DNA of 64,000 nucleotides from Nanobdellota archaeon. Its GTDB lineage: Archaea; Aenigmatarchaeota; Aenigmatarchaeia; QMZP01. The translations under genes were made by a program, and so were the position numbers. The DNA lies in assembly GCA_043814765.1 (NCBI GenBank), contig JBDRJQ010000028.1, positions 29,835 through 93,834 on the forward strand. Direction: 5' to 3'. The notes under the pieces are model-generated. The model was not told the origin of the DNA. It ran no database searches and saw nothing but the letters and a program-made list of their open reading frames with translations. Positions 7,935 to 44,961 of the stretch are shown here, in pieces (positions within the stretch are counted from its first letter, which is position 1; every line of letters begins with the position of its first letter).

Positions 7935-8049
7935 CTCTTTATTCTTATAGCTTCTATATAAAGCTATAAAAATTAATATATATAATTTGCTTTATGATAC
8001 TTATAAAATCGCTGTATGATGCTCATTATAAGGCTATGGGGGGGATACT

Positions 8050-8286
8050 ATGGAAGTAACTGTTTATTCAACACAAACCTGTCCGTACTGTCATATGGTC
8101 AAGGATTTCTTGAAAAAACACAACATAAAATTTAATGACGTTGATGTTTCTCAGGATCAGGAAAAAGCAAAAGAAATGATAGAGAAATCTGGTCAAATGG
8201 GAGTACCTGTAACAGAAATTAATGGTAAGATAATAATAGGTTTTAACCAGGATGCACTTAAAGAGGCACTAGGGATCAAAGATTAA
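8050..8286 (+). CDS. glutaredoxin-like protein
   Basis: 78 aa, CPYC active site (TCPYCHMVKDFL), thioredoxin-fold length. GGGGGAT ribosome-binding site upstream. Confidence 0.7.
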   Translation: MEVTVYSTQTCPYCHMVKDFLKKHNIKFNDVDVSQDQEKAKEMIEKSGQMGVPVTEINGKIIIGFNQDALKEALGIKD

Positions 8287-8390
8287 CTTTATAAACTCTC
8301 TAATGCTAAATACAGAAATAACATAGAGAAATAAACCATATTGATAATGAATTTCTTTATGTTGTTAATAAAATAGGAGATAAGAAAAAT

Positions 8391-8561
8391 ATGAGAGATG
8401 GAGACAGAGATAGACGTGGTGAACGAAATTTCGGTGGACCAAGAGAAATGCATAAAGCCACTTGTTCCGAATGCGGAAAGGAATGCGAAGTTCCTTTTAA
8501 GCCAGTAGAAGGAAGACCCGTTTTTTGCAGAGAATGTTTTGCTAAGAAAAGAGGACATTAA
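8391..8561 (+). CDS. small CxxC...CxxC zinc-ribbon protein (56 aa, zf-trcl-like); below the ORF-track length cutoff
   Basis: Own translation gives MRDGDRDRRGERNFGGPREMHKATCSECGKECEVPFKPVEGRPVFCRECFAKKRGH. AGGAGA ribosome-binding site 8 nt upstream. The competing ORF 8289..8558(-) is low-complexity antisense. Confidence 0.5.
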   Translation: MRDGDRDRRGERNFGGPREMHKATCSECGKECEVPFKPVEGRPVFCRECFAKKRGH

Positions 8562-8704
8562 TTTTAAAGACTTACTTTGATTAGTAAATTTTTATTAAAT
8601 ATTTAGTCCTTAGAAGCATTGAGGCAATCTCTTGTAAGACTTCAATTATTTATTTTTTAAACAAAAACAGGCCTAGCGATAATGAAATATATAAAAATAA
8701 ATAA

Positions 8705-8745
8705 GGGAACAAAAAATGGTTCCCAATTATTTTTTCTTTGATTTT
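8705..8745. terminator. hairpin GGGAAC-N8-GTTCCC flanked by T-runs on both strands (bidirectional terminator candidate)
   Basis: Perfect 6-bp stem at 8705..8724. TTTTTTCTTTGATTTTTTTT downstream on the + strand, and a T-rich run downstream on the - strand after the stop of the 8727..8966 gene. Confidence 0.4.
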
Positions 8746-8966
8746 TTTTCACAGTATTTGCATTTTACACCAGTCCATGTTACAGCCAATATGACGATTG
8801 CAAGTATAGCCATAATCCACTGAACTGCTGCCGCACCAACCAAATCTGGTAAGAACGTAAATACAAGAATCAATACTGCGATTATTGTTAATATCCAATT
8901 AGCGCATGTCATAACAATTACTGGTAAAGGATTAATAAAAAGAAAAGCCTCGGGAGGGATTGTCAT
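8727..8966 (-). CDS. small membrane protein; annotated start overlaps the tRNA 3' end, so internal Met (MTCANW...) is the likelier start
   Basis: Two TM helices and a C-terminal CKYC. First 20 codons overlap tRNA 8946..9139. Confidence 0.35.
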   Translation of the reverse strand: MTIPPEAFLFINPLPVIVMTCANWILTIIAVLILVFTFLPDLVGAAAVQWIMAILAIVILAVTWTGVKCKYCEKKSKKK

Positions 8967-9139
8967 AAACCCTTTTCATGCTCTGGAAGCGCGTGCGCTC
9001 CTTTTGGATTAAACCTTTTCTGAAAAAGGTTTATATTGAACCCCCAACCTTCTGATCTCATGAAGTCATAGCCTAAAAAGGCTCTTCAGATCAGTTGACT
9101 TTTACAAGTCAGATGCTCTACCGATTGAGCTACCGAGGC
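8946..9139 (-). tRNA. tRNA-Thr(TGT) interrupted by two introns: canonical 37/38 intron (46 nt) and a T-loop intron (~75 nt)
   Basis: Read on the minus strand. Acceptor GCCTCGG pairs with CCGAGGC; T8 A9; D-arm GCTC-AATCGGTA-GAGC (G18 G19); anticodon stem TCTGA pairs with TCAGA; loop CTTGTAA (T33, anticodon TGT, A37). Variable loop AGGTT; T-stem GGGGG pairs with CCCTC; T-loop TTCAA|AT reconstituted across the insert; discriminator T. Both inserts contain internal hairpins. Confidence 0.5.
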
Positions 9140-9190
9140 ATACACATTTGTTGTTAATTGGTATTTTAATTCTTTTCTATAATAATAAAC

Positions 9191-9574
9191 ATGGTTATTA
9201 GTGAAATAGTGGGTATGTTCACTCAAATTGCACAGCTGAATATAGTACTGCTTTTAGCACTTCTTTTTATATTTGTTTTTGTAGCCTACAAGCTCCTGAA
9301 AGTTTTAATGAAAGCAATGATTTTCGGTGTTTTAGGCGCTGTATTTCCGTTCTTTGCGACTTATGTTGGAATCAGCATTCCGTTAACAATCACAAACATT
9401 ATATGGTTTGCATTGCTAGGAGTAATGGCATACATAATGTACGCTATTCTTATGGGCGGTGTAAAAACATTAAAGCTTGTTACCAGCCCTTTCAGGGGAA
9501 TGTTCAAAACTAAGCATAAAGAGAAAATAATAATACGCGAGCAGGTTCCGGTTGAAAGGAAAAAGAGACGTTAA
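9191..9574 (+). CDS. membrane protein (4 TM helices), Lys/Arg-rich C-terminus
   Basis: Hydrophobicity pattern only. Confidence 0.4.
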   Translation: MVISEIVGMFTQIAQLNIVLLLALLFIFVFVAYKLLKVLMKAMIFGVLGAVFPFFATYVGISIPLTITNIIWFALLGVMAYIMYAILMGGVKTLKLVTSPFRGMFKTKHKEKIIIREQVPVERKKRR

Positions 9575-9575
9575 T

Positions 9576-10232
9576 TTAAACTATAGGACCAAGACCAGAA
9601 CCGCTGTTTGCTCCGGATTGGTTTGCTGGATACGGCTCAATAAGTTCTTCTTTCTTGAAATCTGTTCCTCTTTGCAGTTTTATCAGTGCATAGAGATTGA
9701 ATTTGTTTAAAATCATGTTAGTCATGTTAGTGTCTGTTCCATCAAATATCAGAGTCATGTTGAATGTGAGTGGTGTTGTGCCGTTTGCTATTTCAAATTC
9801 TGCTGACTTGGTTTCATTAAATGTAACATTAATATCTTGTGAAGTCTCGTTTGCTGTTACATTAACAGTGACATTATAGTCCAAAAAGTTGCCTATGCTA
9901 ACATTCAAAGTGTATGTGGCCAGATTTTGATCAAAATCAACATTATCCGTAACAACCCATAGAGTTGAAAAATTTAGAAAATACAGCGATTCATCCAAAT
10001 AACGGGTGAAATTGCTTAGCACCTCAATAGGCCTGCTCTCATTTATTCCAAGATTAAGCGCATATGAGAGTTCGGTTTCTATGTTTTCATGTATATAGCC
10101 CAGATCCCCTGTCTCAGGATAAATAAAAGGCTTCCCAAACTGCAGTCCGATATAAAACATAGTTATGATTATAAACGCTCCCAAAAGGAAGAACTGCCCT
10201 TTCATTTTTTTATTTCGCATCATTTTTACCAA
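9576..10232 (-). CDS. archaeal type IV pilin-like protein (class III signal peptide), N-glycosylation sequon-rich
   Basis: N-terminus MVKMMRNKKMKG|QFFLLGAFIIITMFYIGL fits a prepilin-peptidase site. The remainder is Asn/Thr-rich with many N-x-T/S sequons. Confidence 0.5.
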   Translation of the reverse strand: MVKMMRNKKMKGQFFLLGAFIIITMFYIGLQFGKPFIYPETGDLGYIHENIETELSYALNLGINESRPIEVLSNFTRYLDESLYFLNFSTLWVVTDNVDFDQNLATYTLNVSIGNFLDYNVTVNVTANETSQDINVTFNETKSAEFEIANGTTPLTFNMTLIFDGTDTNMTNMILNKFNLYALIKLQRGTDFKKEELIEPYPANQSGANSGSGLGPIV

Positions 10233-28462: not shown

Positions 28463-28783
28463 AATAAAGTTATTGTATTGTTTGTTTTTAAGCTCTATAT
28501 ATCCCTATAGATTGACATAAACAAAAACAATGTGTCAGGAGTTTTTTCTGGTGTCGGTTCAGAAGTAGTTGTTTTGGATTCTGTTTCTGTCATTTTCGTT
28601 TTTTCCTTTATTTTCTAATGAAATGATATTGTGTTCTAATCCACTAACAATGTTACGCTATATTAAGCATAAAACGCAACTCATTGTAATATTCTATCAG
28701 TATGAAACTATTCGTTAATACCTGTTATGCTAATGTTTAAAAGCTTATCTTTATAAGGAAATTGAGACAAATATCTAAGTAGT

Positions 28784-32391: not shown

Positions 32392-32718
32392 TTAGATTGA
32401 TTTTTTATTTATTGAGTTCTTATTTAAATGCTTGACTAGGTTTTTATAGAAATCTATAGCCTCACTAAGCATTTTTTCACCCTTTTCAGTAATATGGTAT
32501 ATTTTCTTTCTGCCATATTCTTCTTTTCTAACAAGACCTGATTTCCCTAAAAGATACAAAACTTTATAGGCAGTCATAGTACCTGGCTTGAATCCGAATC
32601 TTTTTTCTATTTCTTTGCGCAGAGTGTATGCGTGTGACGGTTCATCTTTAAGTATATGCAATATATATATCCACAAACATTCCCTAGTATTCAGTAACTT
32701 AAGACGTCTAAGAGGCAT
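32392..32718 (-). CDS. PadR-family transcriptional regulator
   Basis: 108 aa winged helix with LWIYILHILKDEPSHAYTLRKEIEKRFGFKPGTMTAYKVLYLLGKSGLV. Confidence 0.7.
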   Translation of the reverse strand: MPLRRLKLLNTRECLWIYILHILKDEPSHAYTLRKEIEKRFGFKPGTMTAYKVLYLLGKSGLVRKEEYGRKKIYHITEKGEKMLSEAIDFYKNLVKHLNKNSINKKSI

Positions 32719-32752
32719 ATTATCTAATTCCTTGATTATCTTTGTCTATTAG

Positions 32753-32786
32753 TTCAAAGACGACTAAAGTCGTCAAACTATATAAT
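32753..32786 (-). promoter_or_regulatory. TATA box ATTATATAG plus palindromic operator TTTGACGAC-TTTA-GTCGTCTTTGAA immediately upstream of the PadR gene
   Basis: Perfect inverted repeat GACGAC/GTCGTC, spacer 4, abutting the TATA element, ~35-65 nt upstream of the PadR ATG (minus strand). Confidence 0.55.
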
Positions 32787-32805
32787 ATTTTACATTTGTA
32801 TAATA

Positions 32806-32910
32806 TAACCTTTACAAAACAATGTCTTTCGTAGTGTCTTGCGTTCGGTTTTGAACGCAGAAAAACAAAACCTTTATATATACATTGTTACTAGGTAATA
32901 GTAACATAGC
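32806..32910 (+). promoter_or_regulatory. promoter block X: TGTCTTTCGTA + GTGTCTTGCGT motifs, TATA (CCTTTATATATA), TAATAGTAACA at predicted TSS; followed by a ~180-nt leader
   Basis: Same motif order recurs at 37080..37200 (block Y). Confidence 0.45.
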
Positions 32911-33086
32911 TCTTTTGAACGGTAAAAGGTTCGCTGAGTTATCTTACACACGGAAAAAAAACTAGTTATTGGGTCTTAATGATCTGATAGCTTTCAACCA
33001 TAATTGGTACACTGGAACTATTTTTCAGCCTTAGGGCTCAATAATGAACGTGTGAATAAAACAAAAAAAATAAGGAGAAAACAGAA

Positions 33087-33839
33087 ATGAAGCTGTTAAA
33101 AACTACTGCCGTTCTTCTGTCGATTTTCTTTGTTCTCTGCATGGCCACTGTTTGCTATGCTGGCCCAGAAAACGGCAACGGCGCAGTTGACATTCTGACA
33201 AAGTCAGATTTGACTGATCTTCATAACACCATAATTATTGGAATTGTGGTGTTCGCATTAATCATGGTTGCGGTTATTCTTATTTTAATGTTTAGACCGC
33301 GACAAACACTTCCAGCAGTTGTTGAACTGGAACCGGAACCTGATAATCCTGAACCCAGCCCTGATTGGATGAGGTCCGGAGCAAAAAGAATAGCCAAAGA
33401 AGCGGTAGCTGGCATCGAAGAGGATCTCTCGATTGATATTGCCGGTGAATTGACAGATTTGGTAATAGGAGCAAGAACTGCTTCTGAAAACGCACGAAGA
33501 GAATTCATGCGTGTTTTCCGTCAAAGATTGAACGGTGGCAGCGATATCGATGCTCTTATAGATGAAGCCATCCGGCTAAGAGTGCGAGAACGGGGAGCTG
33601 AGCTTCCTCCGGAAGTTCTGGAACATGCAACAGATCCAACAGTTACTCAGGAAGAAGTGGATGCTCTTAACGCTGCTGTTAACACTGAAATGGCTCCGGA
33701 CCCGATTCTGACATTACTTGAGCGATTAGTGGATGGTCAGGCTGCTGCAACAGAAGCTATTCGAAATTTGACAGCTGCTGTAACACCTCCCCCTGACGAA
33801 ACATCGCATGCTCCAGACAGTAGCGGCGATGCAGGTTAA
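33087..33839 (+). CDS. secreted/membrane-anchored acidic protein (signal peptide, one TM, Pro/Glu-rich)
   Basis: N-terminal signal MKLLKTTAVLLSIFFVLCMATVCYA, TM IIIGIVVFALIMVAVILILMF. Higher GC than neighbours. AAGGAGA ribosome-binding site. Confidence 0.5.
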   Translation: MKLLKTTAVLLSIFFVLCMATVCYAGPENGNGAVDILTKSDLTDLHNTIIIGIVVFALIMVAVILILMFRPRQTLPAVVELEPEPDNPEPSPDWMRSGAKRIAKEAVAGIEEDLSIDIAGELTDLVIGARTASENARREFMRVFRQRLNGGSDIDALIDEAIRLRVRERGAELPPEVLEHATDPTVTQEEVDALNAAVNTEMAPDPILTLLERLVDGQAAATEAIRNLTAAVTPPPDETSHAPDSSGDAG

Positions 33840-33925
33840 CCCCCAACTGCCCAATAAACATGGGAGGAGAGTCTGTTCAATCAGGCCTCCTCCCAAAAAT
33901 CTCTGAACATTAAACAAGGAGGATT

Positions 33926-34405
33926 ATGATGAGAATCCTAAACATAATCTCATCTTTTTTTATTGCTTTCTGGGGACTGGTTAAGGGATTCTTCACCATT
34001 CTCCTGAAGTGCATTTGGATAGCAATCAAGTGGTTTTTCATAGCCCTTTGGAAACTGCTTAATTGGATCTGGAATAAAATCATTCTTGTCCAGAATTGGT
34101 TCAAAAGGACCAAACTTGGACGGGATTTGCGAAGAGGAAAGCGATGGCCGCGCATCACAGTGATGAGCCTAATGCTTTTCATTCTTTTTTCCGTCTTATG
34201 TTTTTCACTTCTTTTCTCCGGTCATAAAATGACTGGATTAATAATATCATTGTTTATTCTTTTTGGTCTTGTGCCTTTCTTTGGCACATGGGCCAGAAAT
34301 ATGTATCAAGCAGAGAATGCCGAACCAAAAAAGCGGCACTCAATGATTGACCATATTCCCTGGCCGTGGCTGAAAAATCATCCCTGGCGCAGAATTACAG
34401 CATAG
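33926..34405 (+). CDS. Trp-rich polytopic membrane protein
   Basis: 4 TM segments. AGGAGG ribosome-binding site 6 nt upstream. GC-rich island. Confidence 0.45.
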   Translation: MMRILNIISSFFIAFWGLVKGFFTILLKCIWIAIKWFFIALWKLLNWIWNKIILVQNWFKRTKLGRDLRRGKRWPRITVMSLMLFILFSVLCFSLLFSGHKMTGLIISLFILFGLVPFFGTWARNMYQAENAEPKKRHSMIDHIPWPWLKNHPWRRITA

Positions 34406-34459
34406 ATATCCTGATGAGGATGATTCCTGGGTGGAAAAAAAGGAAGAGAGGAGATCATC

Positions 34460-34795
34460 ATGGATGCAATTACCATCTCGGTTGGGCATCTGACATGCCT
34501 GCTATATCTCGCTTATATGGTGGGTTGGGTGCTAACCGAATTTGTCGCATATGCGACAAAAAACTTGAAGAGAAGAGGGGTAATCGTTCTGTTCTTGATT
34601 ATCCTGCTGTGCACCGCTGTTCTGTTGCATAATTTCAACAAATGGGATGCATATGGATCGTTTTTCATGGCGACTCTGTTTGTCTTCCCTCCGGCCGCTT
34701 TGGTGTTGCTTTCTCGAGAGGTAAGAGGAGGCAACAAATCAATTAGGGAGAGGATGAGAATCTTTGGTGGTGGCACTAAAGGAGATTCATCATGA
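34460..34795 (+). CDS. membrane protein (3 TM)
   Basis: GAGAGGAGA ribosome-binding site upstream. Overlaps the next gene by 4 nt (ATGA). Confidence 0.45.
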   Translation: MDAITISVGHLTCLLYLAYMVGWVLTEFVAYATKNLKRRGVIVLFLIILLCTAVLLHNFNKWDAYGSFFMATLFVFPPAALVLLSREVRGGNKSIRERMRIFGGGTKGDSS

Positions 34796-35091
34796 ACAAT
34801 TTTAATTTTATTATCGGAATCCTGGTAATCTCGACGCTTCTTTGTCTGGTTTTTGCTGTATGGAATTATCTGAAGCTCAAACGTTATCAGAACACTTATG
34901 TTTGGGCAAGTGGCAAAACTCAGAAAGGTGAGGACTTTCTCATTCTTTCAATTGAGGGTAAAGATGAGGATGCCACTCAGTATGAGTGCCATCGAGATGA
35001 AGAGGGCAAGATAACAATTATCGGACCTGCTGGTGAAAACCTTAAAGGCATTCAACACACGTTCGGTAACGGATATCGTCCTCGGATTTAG
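34792..35091 (+). CDS. small N-terminally anchored protein
   Basis: One TM then soluble domain. Translationally coupled to the upstream gene. Confidence 0.4.
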   Translation: MNNFNFIIGILVISTLLCLVFAVWNYLKLKRYQNTYVWASGKTQKGEDFLILSIEGKDEDATQYECHRDEEGKITIIGPAGENLKGIQHTFGNGYRPRI

Positions 35092-35176
35092 TTCAGGTAG
35101 AGGATGAGACCTCGTGGAACTTTAGGGTTTGATGGTGAGATACGATCAAAAATCCAAAGACCTAAGGAGGTCAACA

Positions 35177-35764
35177 ATGCAGATCGATTTGAATTACGTA
35201 GTAAACGCCATTCTGACCAACCTGGCATATGCAGTTGCGCTTGGGCTGGTTATGTGGGGAATTTGCAGGCTTCTGATAAAAGAACCTGAGGGCAATTACT
35301 GGGCACCAAGGGTCATGATGGTAATATTCCTGATCTCTGCGCTTGTCTTCACATTTTCTGTTGGAAGAATAACATTCCCAGCAGTTGACAATGCTGTAGA
35401 AAACATTTTCTCAGGTGTTTCAACATCGATAGCAAGTGCAACACCACATCCTGTGGTAAACATTCAGGTTGACACACCTCCTCCTACTGTAGTAATACAG
35501 AAGGAGACGAGTCAGCCAGTGGTCCGCGAAAGCGAACCGGTTCCAGAAACAACAGAAGGGGATACCTCAAATGAGAAATTTTCTGTAGACGGTCAGTTTG
35601 AAGATGGTACACCATACCATCTTTACACGATTGTCAGGGGCAATACCATATACAGCTTGTCCCGCAGATTTGGTGTCACCCAGGATGAACTTATGAGGCG
35701 GAACGATCTTAGGATTGGAACGCCTCTCCGTATCGGGAGGGATCTCAGGATTCCTATCAAATGA
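35177..35764 (+). CDS. membrane-anchored LysM-domain protein
   Basis: C-terminal LysM: YTIVRGNTIYSLSRRFGVTQDELMRRNDLRIGTPLRIGRDLRIP. Start placed at ATG 35177 with AAGGAGG 7 nt upstream; the ORF-track start 35129 is the alternative. Confidence 0.55.
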   Translation: MQIDLNYVVNAILTNLAYAVALGLVMWGICRLLIKEPEGNYWAPRVMMVIFLISALVFTFSVGRITFPAVDNAVENIFSGVSTSIASATPHPVVNIQVDTPPPTVVIQKETSQPVVRESEPVPETTEGDTSNEKFSVDGQFEDGTPYHLYTIVRGNTIYSLSRRFGVTQDELMRRNDLRIGTPLRIGRDLRIPIK

Positions 35765-35903
35765 AGCACAAACAATTGAATAGGTAACTTGGGAGGGGAG
35801 AAAAATCCTCCCTTTCCCTTTTCATATGTCTATCTATAGGGATATATAAATATATTTTACACTAGTAAAGTATTTAAATTTGCAAATACAATTATTTTAC
35901 AGG

Positions 35904-35935
35904 TATAAAATAGTTGACGACTTTATGTCGTCTTT
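35904..35935 (+). promoter_or_regulatory. TATA box TATAAAAT plus palindromic operator TTGACGAC-TTTAT-GTCGTCTTT immediately upstream of the inositol-phosphate synthase gene
   Basis: Near-identical to the PadR-gene operator (32753..32786) but inverted. Overlaps the predicted TSS, 13 nt before the ATG. Confidence 0.5.
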
Positions 35936-35947
35936 AGATATCAGGTG

Positions 35948-37200: not shown

Positions 37201-37235
37201 TATGATAAAAACATCGAATAGGTGTGGAGGTCAAT

Positions 37236-37910
37236 ATGAGTAATATATATGTTTCGGAAAATGTTGCAAAACATTTTATACAAGGTGTGACTGATCACGC
37301 CATGGAAGGACAATTGTTAGACATAGAAGGAGAAAAAGAGTTTGTTGTAACATACAGACATGAAGGAAATTTAATTCAAAACACTTTAGTTTTTCCTGTA
37401 AGTGGAAGTATTGAAATTTCAGTAGATTCTTTAAGAAAAAAATATCCAAACATTTACAAAACATTAACAAAAAATAATGATATTGGAGATGCAGATAATG
37501 TTCTTTTATACGAAACAGATTTTACAAAACACAGAGAATTAGTTATTAGCAAAAACGCTAATAATGAAAATTTAGCAAAATATATTGATTTTAATGATAA
37601 TCGTATCCCGTCATATGCAAATAGTGAGTTTGAGCCTGTAGAGGATAATTCTTTAGATAACTTGAAAGAGTCTGCAAATTCAGACTTAGAGTATAAAAGA
37701 GTAAATGGAGTTGTAAGAAACTCACTAACATTCAACTATGGTGAAGAAGAAGCCCAGAGAATGCTAGAAAACTACGGAGAACTTTGGTTTGCTGAAAATG
37801 GTCAATTCGCAGGAGCTAGAGAATGGAATCAATTAGGTGAAGAAAAAGGTTGGGATTTCATGAAAAGGTACACTGAAGATGCAAAAAGGTTTGCACCTAC
37901 AAAAGTTTAG
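37236..37910 (+). CDS. hypothetical protein, paralog 1 of operon (N-terminal YVSEN domain)
   Basis: Start at ATG 37236 with GGAGG 6 nt upstream; the ORF-track start was GTG 37224. MSNIYVSENVAKHF...QNTLVFPVSGSIEISVDSL parallels the next gene. Confidence 0.5.
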   Translation: MSNIYVSENVAKHFIQGVTDHAMEGQLLDIEGEKEFVVTYRHEGNLIQNTLVFPVSGSIEISVDSLRKKYPNIYKTLTKNNDIGDADNVLLYETDFTKHRELVISKNANNENLAKYIDFNDNRIPSYANSEFEPVEDNSLDNLKESANSDLEYKRVNGVVRNSLTFNYGEEEAQRMLENYGELWFAENGQFAGAREWNQLGEEKGWDFMKRYTEDAKRFAPTKV

Positions 37911-37930
37911 AATTAGATTAGAGGTAAAAT

Positions 37931-38485
37931 ATGGACAATAAATATGTTTCAGAGAATATAGCATTGCTTAAGGATGTTTTGGTTAGCTATTGTATTCTAG
38001 AAGGGACATTGATAGAAGGATTGAATGAAAATGAAAGCGGTATCCCAATGTCACCAATGTTCATCAATTCGTATGATGATGAAGATGGAGAATATGTACA
38101 TTTACTTAAATCTGGTTGCGATGTTAAATCTAGAAATACACTTGTATTTGATGTTGTTGATTATGTTGAAATCGATAAAGAAACTTTCGATATAATAAGT
38201 GATACTATGGGCAGAAACAGGCACGTATATACTTCTTCTGAAAAAATAGAAGAAATGAAAAGTATTTACGATCAAGGTAAAAAAGTGCTTTTCCCATTGC
38301 TTCCGGGAAGAACCGATAATTGGATTTACAAAAAATATAGATCAATTGTGGCTAAAGAAAGAATGAAAATATTTAAAGATGTTCCTATAGTTGAAGCCAT
38401 TAGATCTGATTCCGGTAGCAGAAAACATAACAGTTATCCAGCAGGAACAGATTCTGAAAAATTGTTTGAGGGGATATTAGATTAG
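37931..38485 (+). CDS. hypothetical protein, paralog 2 of operon (N-terminal YVSEN domain)
   Basis: MDNKYVSENIALLKDV...RNTLVFDVVDYVEIDKETF. Preceded by the 23-nt element ATTAGATTAGAGGTAAAATATGG. Confidence 0.5.
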   Translation: MDNKYVSENIALLKDVLVSYCILEGTLIEGLNENESGIPMSPMFINSYDDEDGEYVHLLKSGCDVKSRNTLVFDVVDYVEIDKETFDIISDTMGRNRHVYTSSEKIEEMKSIYDQGKKVLFPLLPGRTDNWIYKKYRSIVAKERMKIFKDVPIVEAIRSDSGSRKHNSYPAGTDSEKLFEGILD

Positions 38486-38494
38486 AGGTAAAAT

Positions 38495-39100
38495 ATGGCT
38501 GAAAAGAAAGGAAGAAAATATTTCGATGCAGAAGAACTAGAGGACATCTATTCATCTGGCATAGGTGAGGAACGCAGACATGAATTCTTAGACACACCTA
38601 CATCTTGGGATGACATAGACAAAGAGCCACGTGAAAGAGTGGAAAAGGTTCGCATCAAGACAGTTCAGACAATGCCTCGTCTTGAAGAAGAAGAGATGGA
38701 CAAACTTAAGATAATCAGCCCAAAAATAATTGGCAGTCTTTTTGATAGAGTAAAATTTTTGAAAGAAAGAATAGAAGAAACACAAAACACAATGAAAATG
38801 CGTACTGATATTCATAATGACATGTTAGCAGAGATAACTGAGGATATTAAGGAAAGACAGGGAATGTTGGGAAAGGCCATGAGCCTTGACGAGCAAAGAA
38901 GCATAAAACTTGACATGTCTGTTCTTAGAAAGGAAAAAAGAAAGGAAATAATTCAGTTATGGAGAGATATGTTTGATCTAAGAACTGAACTAAAGGAATT
39001 ACTAGAACAGTTCCAAAATGAACAAAAGCTTGCAGATCTTTTCTCTGAAATAAAACCTGAGAATAATAAGAAGGGAGGCATCGGAGAATCCGATATCTAG
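38495..39100 (+). CDS. highly charged coiled-coil protein
   Basis: Glu/Lys/Arg-rich heptad pattern throughout. Preceded by a second identical copy of the 23-nt element. Confidence 0.5.
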   Translation: MAEKKGRKYFDAEELEDIYSSGIGEERRHEFLDTPTSWDDIDKEPRERVEKVRIKTVQTMPRLEEEEMDKLKIISPKIIGSLFDRVKFLKERIEETQNTMKMRTDIHNDMLAEITEDIKERQGMLGKAMSLDEQRSIKLDMSVLRKEKRKEIIQLWRDMFDLRTELKELLEQFQNEQKLADLFSEIKPENNKKGGIGESDI

Positions 39101-39113
39101 GCAGGTTATAATT

Positions 39114-41351
39114 ATGATAGACATAAAAGAAAGATTATTCACTAGCGAAGTTAAGAAACTTATTCCAATCCTAGGCAGGGTTAATGTTGAAAGACTTAGC
39201 AAGGCATACTTGCTTGGTGATGAAGATACCAGATTAAGAATCTTCGAATTAATAGACGTAGCTAAGGCTGCTGTTTTCAGCGAAAACGAGCTTGGCGAAA
39301 GCATATTAATGGAGCCGCCTGAAAAAGAAGCTGTAGCTAAAGGAGAATTGACTCTTGGCAGTGTTCTTTATGGAAAGAAAAAAATGTATCCATTGAGATT
39401 CGAAAAGCAAAGGCTTTTGATGCACATGGGTATATTCGGTTCGTCTGGTTATGGTAAAACAAACCTTGCTCACAAAATGATACTAGAAATGGCAAACGAG
39501 GAATTGCCTATATTGATATTTGATTTCTCAAAGAGAAATTACAGAAAGCTATTAAGAACACCACTAAAGGACAGAATAGATATTTACACCGTGGGCAGAA
39601 ACACATCACCATTCAAATTCAATCCGCTTGTTCCTCCTGAAGGCATTCAAATGTCTCAGTGGATGAAGGAGTTCTCATCTGTATTCGATCATGCTTATTT
39701 CCTTATGGGCGGTGGTAGGCACATAATTATGAAGGCTTTTGACGGAGCTTTCGATGAGTCTGAAAAAACACCAAGATTGAGGGACCTTAAGGATTGGATA
39801 AACGAATACGCAGAACTCAAACTGCCAATGAGAGAGAAGAACTGGATAGCAACAGCTGCAAGGCCGTTGGATTCTCTAGTCTTCAGGGAAATTGGAGAGA
39901 TATTTGATTGTGATGTTGGTGTAAGGCCGTCTGATTTTTTCAAGAAAGGCAAGATAACTATTCTTGAACTGGATGCTCTTGACACTAATGACAAGACATT
40001 TTTCATAGAAATACTGTTACAGTGGATAAGAGATTGGCTTTTGGTAAACGATAAAAGAGAAGAGCTTATAGGAGCCATTATTTTAGAGGAAGCGCACCAT
40101 GTTCTGAACCGTGAAAAATCTATAAGAACTGGTTCAGAAACTGTTATGGATCTTTTGTTCAGAGAGATTAGAGAGCTAGGTCTAGGCATTATTTACTTGG
40201 ATCAGCACCCATCTTTAGTTTCTTATCCGGCTCTGGGTAATACATCTACTCATATTTATATGAATCTGGGACTTGATACAAAGCAGTCTTCAGATATACT
40301 AGATGCAACTCACATGCTTGGATTAGATTATGAAGAGGAAGGCAGCTATCTCAGAAGGCTTCCTGTAGGACAAGGCTTTATGCTTTGCAGAAACTTCGAA
40401 TTCCCAAGACCATTCCTTGTAAACTTCGATGAAGTGAAATTCACTGAAAAGGTAATAAAGGATGAAGAAGTAGCAGAACTGATGAAAACATACGACAAGA
40501 TTGTATCCAAACCAGTAGAACATAAAGTTGCAGAAAACATACCCAAAGAAGTAGTTAAGAAAACAAATGAAATAACAAGCGATATACAAAAAGCTGCTAA
40601 TGATCTTTTACGGGAAATAAAGCTGCTTACAGAAGAGTCTAGGGAATATGCTAAAGAAGAGTATATGGAAGACGCTAAAGAAGATGTAGTTGAGGAACCT
40701 GAAGAAAGAACAGAAATTATAGAACCTAAAATAGAAACACCAAAATTAGAAGACGTTAGCACAGTGGATATGCCCTTAGATAAGATAGACAAACAGGCAT
40801 GGAAAATAATTGATGTTGTTGGTAACGGTCATGGTGCATTTGCATCACAGATATACAAAAACGCCAGAGTATCTGGCACTGTTTTCAATGAAAAAATAGA
40901 GACACTTTTAGACCTGGGCTTAATTAAGCGTGTTGGTGGCAAAAGTGGCAAGAACAAGCTTCATTTTTATTACTTGACTGAAAAGGGAGAAAGGACATTT
41001 GATAGCAACTTCAGAAGATATGAAGGTGCTGTGGATGCTGACCTTTCAGGATTGCTAGAGCTGTTCTCTTTAGTCGGATGGAAAGCTACTCGTAAAGTAG
41101 ACATTCTGGAAATAACCAAAGAGGATGAGATACTTCCAGTTGCAATTATAGATTACACAGACAAAAATAAAATGTACGAAAGACTAAAGATAAACAAACA
41201 TTTTGTATGCGCAAACGAGACGCTAAAAAACATATTGGTGCAACAGGCAGCCAAGCGTTCATTAAAGAAACCAGGATTAACAATATTCGTTTCTACATTC
41301 AAGGATTTTGAAGATAACACAAAATTCGACAAAATAGAGTTCGATATTTGA
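39114..41351 (+). CDS. HerA/FtsK-superfamily (DUF87/AAA_10-like) ATPase fused to an acidic linker, a winged-helix domain and a C-terminal domain
   Basis: Walker A MGIFGSSGYGKTNLAHKM, Walker B DEAH-like IILEEAHHV, IYLDQHPS sensor-like motif. wHTH IYKNARVSGTVFNEKIETLLDLGLIKRV...YYLTEKGERTF. Confidence 0.6.
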   Translation: MIDIKERLFTSEVKKLIPILGRVNVERLSKAYLLGDEDTRLRIFELIDVAKAAVFSENELGESILMEPPEKEAVAKGELTLGSVLYGKKKMYPLRFEKQRLLMHMGIFGSSGYGKTNLAHKMILEMANEELPILIFDFSKRNYRKLLRTPLKDRIDIYTVGRNTSPFKFNPLVPPEGIQMSQWMKEFSSVFDHAYFLMGGGRHIIMKAFDGAFDESEKTPRLRDLKDWINEYAELKLPMREKNWIATAARPLDSLVFREIGEIFDCDVGVRPSDFFKKGKITILELDALDTNDKTFFIEILLQWIRDWLLVNDKREELIGAIILEEAHHVLNREKSIRTGSETVMDLLFREIRELGLGIIYLDQHPSLVSYPALGNTSTHIYMNLGLDTKQSSDILDATHMLGLDYEEEGSYLRRLPVGQGFMLCRNFEFPRPFLVNFDEVKFTEKVIKDEEVAELMKTYDKIVSKPVEHKVAENIPKEVVKKTNEITSDIQKAANDLLREIKLLTEESREYAKEEYMEDAKEDVVEEPEERTEIIEPKIETPKLEDVSTVDMPLDKIDKQAWKIIDVVGNGHGAFASQIYKNARVSGTVFNEKIETLLDLGLIKRVGGKSGKNKLHFYYLTEKGERTFDSNFRRYEGAVDADLSGLLELFSLVGWKATRKVDILEITKEDEILPVAIIDYTDKNKMYERLKINKHFVCANETLKNILVQQAAKRSLKKPGLTIFVSTFKDFEDNTKFDKIEFDI

Positions 41352-41598
41352 GCTCAAACACAACATGTTGTGGATTAATTTTAAATAAGTTAGTGGATAA
41401 AGTATAACTATCACAATAAGTATCATAATCTCAATTCACTAATTTGACTTGCAAAGTCCTTCGCATTAGCTCAACACTAACGCGTCGAATTTAAAAAGAA
41501 TGTTTTCCCATTAGCATCTCGCTAGTGGATAGGATATGCAACATTTCATAAGTGTTGGGTATCCTTTTTCTTGACGACTTCTCAGCGTTAAGCTGATC

Positions 41599-41626
41599 AG
41601 CAGCTAGAAATAGCTGCTATTTTTTT
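41599..41626 (+). terminator. hairpin AGCAGCTA-GAAA-TAGCTGCT followed by ATTTTTTT
   Basis: Perfect 8-bp stem, GAAA loop, T7 run. About 250 nt downstream of the HerA-like gene stop. Confidence 0.45.
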
Positions 41627-42494
41627 GACGACTACCGATTTCTAGAAGACCGTCCAACATGAATTCTACGCACAGCACTCTACAAATTCAGGGTGCAGGT
41701 GTATGAGAGACAGTCTATATGACTAGGCTTGAAATAGGTCTCTCGCTGAATGCAACTCTTTGATGGTAATTCTAGATAACCTGATAGGAGGAGAGACCTG
41801 TTTTTGAAAGTAAGCGTCAGTTTCTGTAACGGATTCTGACGATGGTTATAAAAACAGGGCTTTCACTTCGGTGTTAGCCCTACGAAAACAATCAGCAGCT
41901 TGTCTGCGCTTTCATTTAGCGGTTTCAAGTTCGGAAATCAACATCCGAACCGTTAAGATGTCACAGGTGCGCTTACATATTAGCGCGCCTGTTTTTTGAG
42001 AATACGGAACTTGGGGAAACCCTGGATCCTTTTCTACCAAGAGGAAGAGAGCCACAATTGAAGATTCGGCCTTACTAAAAGCTGGGCCAACCCCTTCATA
42101 AAGGATTGAACCTCTTGGTTTTTTGAAAACAATGCAAAGCCGGATCATAAAAACTGTCCAATGATCCGGCAGCTTAAATAATGGACAGGCAAGATCCACA
42201 ATACATTCGAATCGCGGTTCAAACCACAATTTCGGTTTCGGGCGCTTGTAATCACAGCACGACAGAAGAGTTCTTATTTAATGAACTCACATCGTTTCTC
42301 CACTCATCTGCAAGTAATTCTTCGTCCTGCAGCAGTCTCCTTCCACCTTTCCTTCCGTAACGCCTCCACCGATTCTAGTTTACGGCACAATATCTTCTGG
42401 CACAGTATCTTCTGGGATTGTATAAAACGAAGTAACAATTTCCCAGATTGATACAAATTTAAACGCGTCTCTCTTCCCCCCGTAAAAAGGGAAA

Positions 42495-42531
42495 GTGCCC
42501 GACTCCTTCCGCGACTCGGGCACTTTTTTTT
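42495..42531 (+). terminator. GC-rich hairpin GTGCCCGA-N13-TCGGGCAC followed by TTTTTTTT (intrinsic-terminator-like)
   Basis: 8-bp G/C stem plus T8. Would end a + strand transcript arising in the ORF-free region. Confidence 0.45.
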
Positions 42532-42910
42532 GTCCAGCTCATGACTACCGAAAGCAAGGATCGATGATTTAAACATTTACCTGAAACAGCGTGTAATCGG
42601 CACGCATACTCCAGGAATCAACAGATAGATGAGGAGGCCCGAAAAACAAATTAATAATCGCACGAAAGTTGTATTGGTTTTTCAAAAACCTATTCGGTAA
42701 AATCATTGCACAGCCAACAAGCGGTGCAAAATTAACTCAAAAAAGAGAACGGCACTTTGAGGTAAATGAGACATTATTGAATTTAAGCGACACCGAAAAG
42801 AGCCAATCTTAAACGCAGAAGCGATGATCAAACCATCCTTCTGCTTCTTTACATATATCTACTAAAAGGGATATAAGCAATAATCTGCAAACATGCTTCA
42901 AACAAAAAAA

Positions 42911-43216
42911 TTACTTCTTTTTGATGTACTTCTTGAACCATTTAAGAATTGTCCAGCGAGAAACCTTGATCCCGTGCCTGTGTTTCATCTCCTGCTGCAC
43001 CTCGGACAGAGAGAGGCCTTTACTGTAGAGAGCTACAGCTTTCATTATTGTATCTTTTTTGAACCTCATCCGCAGGAAATTGTCGTTTGGGGTATACTTG
43101 CGTCCGCACTTTTTACAGAGCCGAAGGTGCTTTTTAGTTGACTCGTTATACCTAAAACCTCTCCACACAGTGTTTGTGCTCTGGCAATGCGCACATCTCT
43201 CAATTTTATCTTTCAT
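42911..43216 (-). CDS. zinc-ribbon + HTH transposase-like protein (IS1 InsA-like/ISNCY-like helper); possible IS remnant
   Basis: CAHCQS...C-x-x-C (CKKCGRKY) N-terminal zinc ribbon then HTH GLSLSEVQQEMKHRHGIKVSRWTILKWFKKY. No catalytic transposase ORF nearby. Confidence 0.4.
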   Translation of the reverse strand: MKDKIERCAHCQSTNTVWRGFRYNESTKKHLRLCKKCGRKYTPNDNFLRMRFKKDTIMKAVALYSKGLSLSEVQQEMKHRHGIKVSRWTILKWFKKYIKKK

Positions 43217-43254
43217 ACTTAATTAAACTTATAGGGATATATAAAGCTTTCTCT

Positions 43255-44961
43255 CTACATCTTCTCAGGTGCCTCTATACCCAACAGAAATAAAGCGTTC
43301 TTAATGGTAATTTTTGCTGCTTTGACCAGAGCCAAACGCACTTCAGCAGTATTTTTGTCAGCTTTCAGTACGGGAAGCGCCTGATAAAACTCGTTAAAGG
43401 CTGATGCCAGCTCATAGACATAGTTCACTATGTAATGGGGTCTGTAGTCCCTTGCAGAATTCTCAATTGTCTGGGAAAAGTTAGAAATTATTTTTATAAG
43501 CCTTTTTTCCTTGTCGTCAACTAATAGGGATGCATCAAATTCTATTGGTTTTGTTTTTGCCTTTCTCAAAATAGAAGATGCCCTGGCATAAGTGTACTGC
43601 ACATAAGGCGCACTGTTGCCCTGAAAATCCAGTGCCTGATCCCAGTCAAATATTATAACCTTTTCAGGTGACTGCATTATCATGCTGTACTTTATTGCGC
43701 CCATTGCAACCTGCTCAGCTATTTTCTTGTGTTCTGCTGCAGAAAGAGCTGGGTTCTTTTCTTTAGTTGCTTGCAGCGCTATAGCGTACAGCTTTGACTT
43801 AAGCTCATGGTAAAGTATAACTTTTCCTTCTCTGGACTTCATCTTGCCTGTAGGAAGGTTAACCAGTTCGTAGGATAAATGGCATTCTTTTTTAGCAATC
43901 GGATCGCTAATAATCTCCAGTGTTTTAAAAAACTGCTGAAAGTAAAGTTTTTGCTCAGAACCGACGACATGAATTATCAAATCTGGATTGTATTCTTTGT
44001 TTTGAAGCCTTGCCAGAGCAAATTCTTTTGTTGAATAAAGGGCTATTCCATCCTTTCTCAGCACTAAGAATATGCCCAGACCGTATTCTTTAAGATCTAT
44101 TATCAAAGCACCATCGCTTATTTTGAATACCCCCTTTTTATGCAAATCCTCTACTATTTTTCTTCCTGGTGCTTCAACTTCTGATTCCATGTAAAGCCTG
44201 TCAAACTTTGCTCCAAAATCCTTGTAAATATCATCAAAATAATCAAGGCTCCATTTCCTTCCTGTTTTCCATATAGAAACCAGTTCTTTATCGCCAGCGT
44301 ACAGTTTTTTATTTATCTCATCAATCTCTTCAGTGACTTTTTGATTTAGGCTTGCCTTTTCACTGGATTCTTTGTAAACATCGCCAAGCCACAAACCTTT
44401 ATGAACATTTTTTGGTGGTTTCTTTTTATAGATATTTATCAAACCCCACAGAGCTTTTGCTACATGCGGGCCTATATCACCTTGATAATTTGCCCTCACT
44501 GTTTTATGGCCTGAAAACTCCAGGACACGCGACAGGGATTCACCAAGGGCTATGTTTCTAACATGACCTATATGAAATCCTTTGAATGGGTTTGGATGGG
44601 CATACTCCACCATTATTGTCTTTCCTTTACCGTCAACAGAACTTCCATATTCTTTTCCTTCCCTTAACACATCTTTCAGAACCATATCGCTGAATTTTTC
44701 TGAGTCAGCATAGAAGTTTATGTAAGGGCCAACAGCTCTTACCTCGCGCAACAGACCTTTTGGTTTTACTTTGGATGCGATCTGTCTTGCTATGTCTGCT
44801 GGACTTTTCTTGAATTTTTTTGCAAAAGCAAAACATGGTAACGCAAAGTCTGCACCGATGTTTTCAGGTGGCTTTTCTAAAAATTCTTCTATCTGTTTTT
44901 TTGGAAGATGTTTTTTCAAAAGCATTGTAACTTCGTCACGGATTTTTTTGTTAACATCCAT
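43255..44961 (-). CDS. argS: arginyl-tRNA synthetase
   Basis: HIGH motif FHIGHVRN, KMSKS-like GKMKSREGK, C-terminal DALR anticodon-binding region, 568 aa. Confidence 0.8.
   Translation of the reverse strand: MDVNKKIRDEVTMLLKKHLPKKQIEEFLEKPPENIGADFALPCFAFAKKFKKSPADIARQIASKVKPKGLLREVRAVGPYINFYADSEKFSDMVLKDVLREGKEYGSSVDGKGKTIMVEYAHPNPFKGFHIGHVRNIALGESLSRVLEFSGHKTVRANYQGDIGPHVAKALWGLINIYKKKPPKNVHKGLWLGDVYKESSEKASLNQKVTEEIDEINKKLYAGDKELVSIWKTGRKWSLDYFDDIYKDFGAKFDRLYMESEVEAPGRKIVEDLHKKGVFKISDGALIIDLKEYGLGIFLVLRKDGIALYSTKEFALARLQNKEYNPDLIIHVVGSEQKLYFQQFFKTLEIISDPIAKKECHLSYELVNLPTGKMKSREGKVILYHELKSKLYAIALQATKEKNPALSAAEHKKIAEQVAMGAIKYSMIMQSPEKVIIFDWDQALDFQGNSAPYVQYTYARASSILRKAKTKPIEFDASLLVDDKEKRLIKIISNFSQTIENSARDYRPHYIVNYVYELASAFNEFYQALPVLKADKNTAEVRLALVKAAKITIKNALFLLGIEAPEKM

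Follow-up and report, generated by a model that had tools for sequence, protein, structure and literature searches.

We analyzed a 64-kb stretch of archaeal DNA (the window) and focused on a 1.5-kb gap in it, positions 41352 to 42910, that is free of open reading frames (ORFs). In a greedy gene map, about 87% of the window is coding and this gap is its longest ORF-free stretch; the other big gap, 7935-9190, contains small genes and a tRNA. A first-pass annotation, made from the sequence without database searches, had read the gap as a candidate for one or more novel structured noncoding RNAs (ncRNAs). We found that 41352-42910 is noncoding, that the region folds far beyond chance, and that, judged by gene order, the position of the interval between the genes for a HerA-like ATPase and those for a zinc-ribbon/helix-turn-helix (ZnR-HTH) protein and arginyl-tRNA synthetase (ArgRS) is conserved in this DPANN lineage.

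The ORF-free gap and its setting

The gap is bounded by two genes, with ArgRS next to the second of them.

39114-41351 (+): 745-aa HerA/DUF87-like ATPase with a C-terminal winged helix (profile matches, synteny)
41352-42910 (no strand assigned): the whole ORF-free interval, from the stop of the HerA-like gene to the stop of the 101-aa gene (ORF lists, codon scores; protein and RNA family searches empty)
42904-42910 (-): bare T7 without a hairpin, directly past where the 101-aa gene stops; an archaeal terminator of the plain oligo-T type (sequence)
42911-43216 (-): 101-aa ZnR-HTH gene resembling the N terminus of IS6/IS1 transposases (NF033587, positions 1-52 of 202, E 3.5e-10)
43255-44961 (-): ArgRS gene

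The host lineage is DPANN: in GTDB species genomes, the best matches of its ArgRS (56-58%) come from uncultured archaea, Pacearchaeota, and Aenigmatarchaeota, and the closest relative outside its own genome is 74% identical. Genes for archaeal L7Ae and diphthine synthase lie nearby in the window. Two related genomes served for comparison: R1, represented by seven near-identical contigs (L049-L055), and R2, a single contig (L059). Both carry Ino1, two or three small genes, the HerA-like gene, an ORF-free gap, a 100-aa gene, and ArgRS in this order, and the gap at the same place measures 1287 nt in R1 and 1273 nt in R2.

The first-pass annotation had stated that neither strand of the gap holds a credible ORF, and this was borne out. 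The largest gap ORFs encode 105 aa (TTG start) and 90 aa, both on the minus strand, and neither has a Pfam or NCBIfam match. Codon-usage scores of gap ORFs of at least 25 aa run from -0.43 to +0.20, within the null given by off-frame ORFs (-0.15 ± 0.18); real genes score at least 0.15, with a mean of 0.33. A scan of the gap for ORFs of at least 45 aa led by a Shine-Dalgarno sequence found none. Six-frame translation of the gap gave no Pfam match at E ≤ 10, and a comparison of the six-frame concatenate with 5.8 billion proteins left no match at E ≤ 1 among the 8000 word-sharing candidates that were scored. Small proteins from the same interval in distant relatives had no tblastn match in the gap. 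Decayed coding sequence of a foreign element, which had been offered as the alternative to ncRNA, thus gained no support from the six-frame searches.

Folding sets the region apart. In 120-nt sliding windows, the mean z-score of the folding energy is -2.18 on the plus strand and -1.45 on the minus strand, compared to -0.37 and -0.29 outside, and the region ranks among the two most structured stretches in the window. On the plus strand, segment 41405-42000 has a minimum free energy (MFE) of -198.1 kcal/mol versus -142.7 ± 6.2 for shuffled sequences (z, -8.92), and none of 100 shuffles was as stable; the z-score of the minus strand is -4.9. The values for the rest of the gap are -3.2 (+) and -4.0 (-) for 41999-42535 and -4.3 (+) and -1.4 (-) for 42536-42910. 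The claimed GC enrichment is real and modest, and it is the weakest part of the observation: GC content is 0.434 in the core (41461-42560) and 0.408 in the whole gap; the window averages 0.387 ± 0.029, ten other spacers range over 0.28-0.39, and 8% of the 1100-nt windows reach the GC content of the core. The gap is also rich in CpG-containing trinucleotides; its overall trinucleotide signature is no outlier (root-mean-square z, 1.0).

Hairpins, T-runs, and repeats in the gap

The hairpins quoted in the first-pass annotation, with their perfect stems, GAAA and UUCG loops, and 10-bp inverted repeat, are all present where it had placed them. The elements inside the gap are as follows.

41379-41387 (+): TTTTAAATA, a perfect archaeal TATA-box-like motif 28 nt past the HerA stop; candidate promoter (sequence, conserved in R1 and R2)
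41508-41528 (+): hairpin CCAUUAGC-AUCUC-GCUAGUGG (MFE structure)
41531-41569 (+): 15-bp interrupted hairpin, then U5 (MFE structure, T-run scan)
41571-41633 (+): two direct copies of TTGACGACT, at 41571-41579 and 41625-41633 (exact-copy count)
41599-41626 (+): perfect 8-bp GAAA-tetraloop hairpin (41599-41618), then U7 (41620-41626), -11.6 kcal/mol (terminator scans, MFE)
41857-41880 (+): hairpin GGGCUUUCAC-UUCG-GUGUUAGCCC, with an extra-stable UUCG loop when read on the plus strand (sequence, MFE)
41929-41950 (+): 7-bp hairpin GUUCGGA/UCCGAAC (sequence, MFE)
41963-41997 (+): 11-bp GC-rich hairpin, then U6, -18.1 kcal/mol; the strongest terminator-like element (terminator scans, MFE)
42013-42022 (+): GGG-GAAA-CCC mini-hairpin with a GNRA loop (terminator scan, MFE)
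42108-42124 (+): short hairpin, then U6 (repeats, MFE, T-run scan)
42139-42170 (no strand assigned): perfect 10-bp inverted repeat GCCGGATCAT N12 ATGATCCGGC (sequence, MFE)
42489-42531 (+): hairpin of about 15 bp (42489-42526), then U8 (42524-42531) (sequence, MFE, T-run scan)
42815-42873 (+): hairpin (7+4 bp), UUCUUUACAUAU, about 13 nt, and AGGGAUA; the orthologous right end (three-genome alignment, MFE)

Runs of T5-T8 directly follow hairpins on the plus strand at five sites (41565, 41620, 41992, 42119, and 42524). The two hairpin-plus-T8 terminators reported at first are among them, with runs of T7 and T8, and the total is five rather than two. Terminator-like sites in 40500-44000 number 7, versus 2.8 ± 2.0 in shuffles. 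Defined as a GC-rich stem of at least 5 bp with a loop of 3-8 nt and at least five T within 8 nt past the stem, candidate intrinsic terminators are found at 41599-41626, 41963-41997, and 42489-42531, and the second of these marks the end of the most structured segment. The hairpin at 42489-42531 could act in both directions because A5 precedes it. When the full 64 kb was scanned, the combination of a compact GC-rich hairpin and at least T6 proved to be almost confined to this region; native genes end in plain T-runs. The elements have a polarity: the two GNRA loops, the one UUCG loop, and the T6-T8 runs after hairpins all read on the plus strand only. The two elements reported at first had been labeled bacterial-style terminators. 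The label fits their hairpin and T-run form; the host, however, is archaeal, and in archaeal termination oligo-U alone suffices and the hairpin is dispensable (PMC2253867, PMC7515710).

The TTTTAAATA box is the sole perfect match to TTTAWATA on the plus strand of the gap. It occurs three times in the window, counting both strands, with one copy in a gene promoter. The 9-nt motif TTGACGACT has four exact copies in the window versus about 0.4 expected. Each of the two gap copies comes after a T-run, and the pair brackets a small hairpin and the GAAA-loop hairpin; the other two are palindrome halves in the promoters of a PadR-like gene (32392-32718) and Ino1. The palindrome, TTGACGACT-N2-5-AGTCGTC, lies directly past the TATA boxes of these two genes (32757-32779 and 35914-35936) and is probably the operator of the PadR-like repressor, as predicted from its placement. 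Neither R1 nor R2 conserves the half-sites of the gap.

Repeats in the gap comprise one tandem 15-nt duplication (GGCACAATATCTTCT/GGCACAGTATCTTCT, 42384-42413) and scattered two-copy repeats of 12-26 nt; one of these joins two of the elements listed above, as GTTTTTTGAAAA in the 42108-42124 element repeats GTTTTTTGAGAA at 41991. Beside the hairpin modules, TTTTTTTGACGACT is a candidate repeat sequence for the question of a miniature inverted-repeat transposable element (MITE). The region has no other copy in the 64-kb window, and its best inverted repeat of the terminal type spans 29 nt at 72%. There are no regularly spaced direct repeats that would make a CRISPR (clustered regularly interspaced short palindromic repeats) array or tandem-repeat locus.

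We then compared the DNA with known RNA families. Rfam (4227 families) gave no match for the gap, or for the whole window, at gathering score. With permissive filters on the region, the best matches (E 0.16-9) are to unrelated bacterial small RNAs (sRNAs) and microRNAs and sit on the terminator hairpins; the syntenic gaps of the relatives gave nothing. The first-pass annotation had seen a faint resemblance to RNase P CR-I and CR-II, and AGGGTGCAGGTG is indeed present at 41690. The resemblance found no backing from Infernal: a significant RNaseP_arch match that takes in the conserved CR-I to CR-V core and the P4 pseudoknot was sought, and none appeared at gathering score or, in permissive mode, at E ≤ 10. 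The annotation had also named signal recognition particle (SRP) RNA, group I and II introns, and OLE-like large ncRNAs as families to look for, and none of them matched: no covariance-model match was found for archaeal SRP RNA (with its helix 8 and helix 5 motifs) or for OLE, GOLLD, ROOL, and HEARO, and Rfam models detected no catalytic core (P3-P9, or domain V) of a group I or II intron. A pattern scan for C/D box sRNAs, using the C (RUGAUGA), D′ (CUGA), C′, and D boxes with 10-14-nt guide spacing and allowing 1 mismatch in C and C′, returned no candidates on either strand, and a scan for tRNA and transfer-messenger RNA found none in the region.

The same interval in related genomes

By blastn, the flanks of the gap align with R1 and R2 at 73-76%. 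Alignment further indicates that both gap ends are orthologous among the three genomes and that the interior of the gap is replaced or diverged relative to R1 and R2. At the left end, the TTTTAAATA box is invariant, 25-40 nt past the HerA stop. At the right end, UYCUUUAYA (TTCYTTTAYA in the three-genome alignment), a spacer of about 13 nt, and AGGGATA are conserved; ahead of them, each genome has a hairpin whose sequence is unrelated to those of the other two. Orthology of the two ends rejects misassembly or vector contamination as a source of the gap. A hairpin of the CCAUUAGC type, UUUCCAUUAGCAUAAGCUAUGGAAA in R1 and R2, is about equally far from the TATA box in all three genomes and has 2 compensatory pairs between R1 and R2; the likeness between the CCAUUAGC and UUUCCAUUAGCAUAAGCUAUGGAAA hairpins is too short to prove homology.

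R1 and R2 share more with each other. The first ~560 nt of their gaps is conserved, with 77% identity over the first 300 nt, and forms a common structured unit of ~540 nt (L049 12760-13245, minus strand; L059 2525-3065). Within it, a 118-nt block is 92% identical, compared to 77-85% for adjacent coding DNA (L049 12770-12887, minus strand; L059 2953-3060). The unit has fold z-scores of -3.8 and -5.6 and 44 consensus pairs; 18 of these vary, by 5 compensatory double and 13 one-sided changes, with no pair broken. At the end of the unit, a 12-bp stem encloses unpaired CACCUCCUUA and is followed by U5-U8. On this comparison, the ~540-nt unit is a better-supported ncRNA candidate than the gap of the window. 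The distal 700 nt, on the other hand, is completely different even between R1 and R2, and R1 has a repeated motif of its own, ATGGAAATT, in three copies. The gaps of relatives are more structured than their flanks (z, -1.3/-1.45 versus -0.26/-0.44), and the excess is stronger on the HerA-sense strand in R2 and in the distant relative L063. Single-nucleotide polymorphism density in the R1 gap versus its flanks is uninformative, the R1 strains being 99.9% identical.

Two further observations concern the R1/R2 unit. The unpaired CACCUCCUUA mimics the 3′ end of 16S rRNA (the anti-Shine-Dalgarno sequence), and GGAGG motifs occur elsewhere in the R1 and R2 gaps. At the predicted transcription start there is an ATG that opens a frame of 26-30 codons, MFSYVT[RC]FNGL[VL]SCY... 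(L049, from ~13243 downwards on the minus strand; L059, from 2525 onwards). Both substitutions in the first 15 codons are nonsynonymous, the frames diverge past an indel, and the window has no such frame; from these comparisons, it is probably not coding.

Past the HerA-like gene, distant relatives also have gene-poor DNA, of different sequence. In L063, two ORF-free stretches of >1.3 kb and three small genes lie between the ATPase and ArgRS genes. This variable interval of an archaeal contig also encodes, at 9344-9760, a 138-aa protein with two tandem domains of CsrA, a bacterial RNA-binding regulator. Another distant relative has an integrase near the interval. Homologues of the gap itself were sought more widely. 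Searches by blastn against plasmids and phages found nothing, as did three exact or gapped hairpin patterns run against viral contigs, and when the ArgRS loci of 48 GTDB species and all further loci retrieved (60+ in total) were searched by blastn, the matches were at chance level only. A metagenome search with the HerA-like protein found only an already known relative and short contigs.

The HerA-like ATPase is, by its distribution and synteny, a core gene of the clade: relatives at ~50% identity are widespread in DPANN with the synteny L7Ae-PadR-Ino1, and the locus is therefore not a recent mobile element. Among named proteins, the ATPase is most similar to the DNA-translocating ATPase CedD and to defense-type HerA. 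Across DPANN, one to three uncharacterized proteins of ~180-230 aa precede it (window 37224-41351; L060-L063), and in one lineage it adjoins RPA and RadA. PHROGs and PADLOC assigned no system to the neighboring proteins.

The 101-aa protein is 81% identical in amino acids to its R1 copy, compared to 74% for ArgRS and 69% for the ATPase. Because the solo 100-aa gene of the relatives is better conserved than ArgRS, we take the gene, from these identities, to be a DNA-binding gene that is intact and has been domesticated, rather than a fresh fragment. Together with ~35 nt upstream, it is inverted in the window (42911-43254) relative to L049 (11711-12060) and L059 (3700-4051), the nucleotide match to the relatives being on the opposite strand. 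In R1 and R2, the promoter of the 100-aa gene carries the palindrome AGGGATA...TATCCCT, the halves of which are split in the window to 42867-42873 and 43234-43240, on either side of the 101-aa gene, as if the inversion breakpoint had been at the center of the palindrome. The window has three copies of an exact 12-mer, TAGGGATATATA, all of them in promoter-proximal spacers (28496-28507, minus strand; 35837-35848 and 43232-43243, plus strand), and R1 and R2 both conserve TATATCCCTAT upstream of their 100-aa gene. The two may represent a shared promoter or regulator site, a putative assignment.

A candidate transcription unit, its rivals, and known systems

We tentatively propose that the gap is a positionally conserved, fast-evolving noncoding transcription unit on the plus strand that makes small structured RNAs. 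Transcription would start near 41410, with the conserved TTTTAAATA box (41379-41387) lying ~25 nt upstream. Transcripts could also reach the gap by read-through from the HerA-like gene, because that gene has no run of T5 or longer before 41565. The 3′ ends would form at successive oligo-U tracts (41565-69, 41620-26, 41992-97, 42119-24, and 42524-31). Since the archaeal terminator is the U-tract, folding and stabilizing the RNA 3′ ends would be the main role of the GC-rich hairpins, those with GAAA and UUCG loops included. The expected products are nested or tandem RNAs of ~150-600 nt from 41410-42000, and they may include a structured 3′ untranslated region (UTR) of the HerA-like mRNA. The hairpin and U-rich element at 42815-42850 would insulate the neighboring gene. 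An interplay of the RNA with the PadR-like regulator through the two TTGACGACT half-sites of the gap is speculative.

Much of the initial reading as novel structured ncRNA stands, in that the gap is noncoding, strongly structured, outside any Rfam family, and matched by a structured syntenic gap in relatives. No homologue of the gap's own sequence was found in the databases and loci searched. The GC content of the core, ~10 points above that of other spacers, also counts in favor of a transcription unit. Several results weigh against it. The interior of the gap does not align with R1 or R2, a covariance model of the 5′ half of their unit finds no match in the gap of the window with filters on or off, and plasmids, phages, viral contigs, and the 60+ loci hold no homologue; with none found, covariation evidence for the sequence of this gap is absent. 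The covariation between R1 and R2 is weak because n = 2 and the structure was derived from the same sequences. In distant relatives, the interval is variable. Strand asymmetry is missing from the G-U pairs of 41405-42000 (14 on the plus and 16 on the minus strand), and the middle part, 41999-42535, folds better on the minus strand. Finally, 41627-42531 has no obvious promoter, because there is one good TATA motif on the plus strand and the first T5/T7 runs would stop most transcripts by 41626. Taken together, the observation is real and more than chance, and the ncRNA reading is plausible for this sequence. A bolder proposal, which we consider unlikely, is that the locus exemplifies an undescribed class of ncRNA loci in which position, promoter, and boundary terminator are conserved and turnover of the hairpin body leaves orthologues unrecognizable between genera. 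The fast-evolving body could act as a regulatory or decoy RNA. That a decoy would carry anti-Shine-Dalgarno-like or regulator-binding segments, for handling foreign or Shine-Dalgarno-led transcripts or for host interaction, is speculative.

As the main alternative, the interior could be inert filler left over from foreign or mobile DNA, in an interval between the HerA-like gene and ArgRS that is variable and prone to recombination, with the hairpins and T-runs as relic terminators and palindromes of a bacterial, viral, or plasmid-like donor and only the gap ends native. We regard this as possible, if somewhat doubtful. It accounts for an interior unique to this genome between orthologous ends and flanking genes, for the complete difference between the distal 700 nt of R1 and R2, and for the different gene-poor DNA of distant relatives, with a tandem CsrA-like gene in one and an integrase nearby in another. 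The adjoining 101-aa gene, similar to insertion sequence (IS) genes, is inverted here, hairpin-plus-T-run terminators are a bacterial signature unneeded in archaea, and CpG-containing trinucleotides are enriched. A second lineage-specific, GC-richer, and highly structured block lies at 32.8-35.9 kb, with GGAGG ribosome-binding sites versus the leaderless native genes. Neutral decay, however, should erode stems, and many of these are perfect over 8-11 bp with extra-stable tetraloops; an ORF-free gap of 1.3-1.6 kb is kept in three diverged compact genomes; no donor was found, and there are no gene traces between "terminators" 50-400 nt apart. The trinucleotide signature as a whole is also unremarkable.

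The second block deserves a description of its own. It spans 32719-35944, between the PadR-like gene and Ino1, where a relative has two small genes. Its five plus-strand ORFs, with a GC content of 0.42-0.44, include secreted low-complexity, membrane, and LysM proteins. The GGAGG ribosome-binding sites are strong, and the mean plus-strand fold z is about -2.2, as low as that of the gap. The block looks like foreign DNA by these features, and its origin is possibly related to that of the gap.

It is improbable that the gap works at the DNA level, as an array of protein-binding or hairpin-extruding sites, whether as a target of the ATPase or the ZnR-HTH protein, as PadR operator half-sites, or as an origin, transfer, or segregation site. 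DNA-binding proteins do flank it on both sides, the exact half-site of the PadR/Ino1 operator occurs in it twice, R1 repeats its own motif three times, and perfect Watson-Crick palindromes fold on both strands (minus-strand z, -4.9 and -4.0), with symmetric G-U pairs. Yet the hairpin sequences are unrelated and so offer no common binding site, the TTGACGACT half-sites are not kept in R1 or R2, and the polarity of T-runs and tetraloops points to RNA. A replication origin was rejected: genes converge on the gap, no Orc1/Cdc6 gene is nearby, and the window has no repeat of the origin recognition box (ORB) type.

Pseudogenized protein genes are a very improbable source of the gap. Of the 202 positions of the IS6 model, the 101-aa ORF covers no more than 1-52, so that a decayed DDE part of an IS6-family transposase would fall downstream of this fragment, from 42910 downwards on the minus strand. 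The empty Pfam search in every frame, the empty protein search, and codon scores in the null range all speak against such remains, as do R1 and R2, in which the 100-aa gene is likewise solo and is better conserved than ArgRS (81% versus 74%). A highly diverged version of a known large RNA (RNase P, SRP, a group I or II intron, or an RNA of the OLE, GOLLD, ROOL, or HEARO type), suggested by the faint CR-I/CR-II resemblance and by the aberrant form that DPANN RNAs can take, such as the intron-bearing tRNA at 9025-9132 below the Rfam threshold, is hardly credible given that no Rfam family reached its gathering score in the window, that permissive searches gave a best E of 0.16-9, and that the syntenic gaps of relatives held nothing. 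The tRNA-like gene in question (9025-9132, minus strand) scores 24 bits versus an Rfam tRNA gathering score of 29, and ARAGORN makes no call; its insertion is probably an intron, to judge from the sequence.

DPANN archaea have tiny, gene-dense genomes, and one would not expect three diverged genomes of this kind to keep a highly structured interval of 1.3-1.6 kb without genes in one and the same place. To our knowledge, almost nothing is known about ncRNAs in this group. If the interval is transcribed, lineage-specific structured RNAs would be added to a group known only from metagenomes, and 3′ ends made of a hairpin and a U-tract would be in use in an archaeon. If it is inert, it would mark a hot spot of foreign DNA entry into reduced genomes.

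Among known systems, the Hgc RNAs of Methanocaldococcus and Pyrococcus, reportedly described by Klein et al. in 2002 as GC-rich, ORF-free islands in AT-rich genomes, offer one comparison. Like Hgc genes, the gap forms an ORF-free island within AT-rich archaeal DNA, with GC content above that of spacers, stable hairpins, and oligo-U ends. Unlike them, it shows a small GC contrast (0.43 versus 0.39) and no Rfam Hgc match, is, at 1.5 kb, far longer than a single sRNA, and is not conserved in sequence in its nearest relatives. Its hairpins resemble bacterial Rho-independent terminators in their stems of 8-15 bp, loops of 4-8 nt, and T6-T8 directly after; they differ in having an archaeal host and in standing as five elements within 1 kb with no genes between. 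Compared to OLE, GOLLD, ROOL, and HEARO RNAs, the gap is likewise long, ORF-free, and very stably folding, but its fold is a string of local hairpins with no evident long-range multidomain architecture, and it has no family of homologues.

Consecutive terminators behind one archaeal gene are known (PMC2253867, PMC7515710), as in the consecutive oligo-dT terminators of hpyA1 of Pyrococcus (PMC2253867), and the Term-seq studies cited in PMC7515710 report alternative archaeal 3′ UTRs. The T5 and T7 runs of the gap are similarly in tandem, 54 nt apart, behind a gene without an earlier T-run, and this pair could, by analogy, be a main terminator and its backup. Such an arrangement would cover 41352-41626 only and not the next ~900 nt of structured DNA. 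A further comparison is with the ~540-nt unit of R1 and R2. Beyond short motifs the window is not alignable with it, and CACCUCCUUA has no clear counterpart; the two nevertheless share the position after the HerA-like stop, the TTTTAAATA box, the strand, a hairpin of the CCAUUAGC type, and an end formed by a long stem and a U-run.

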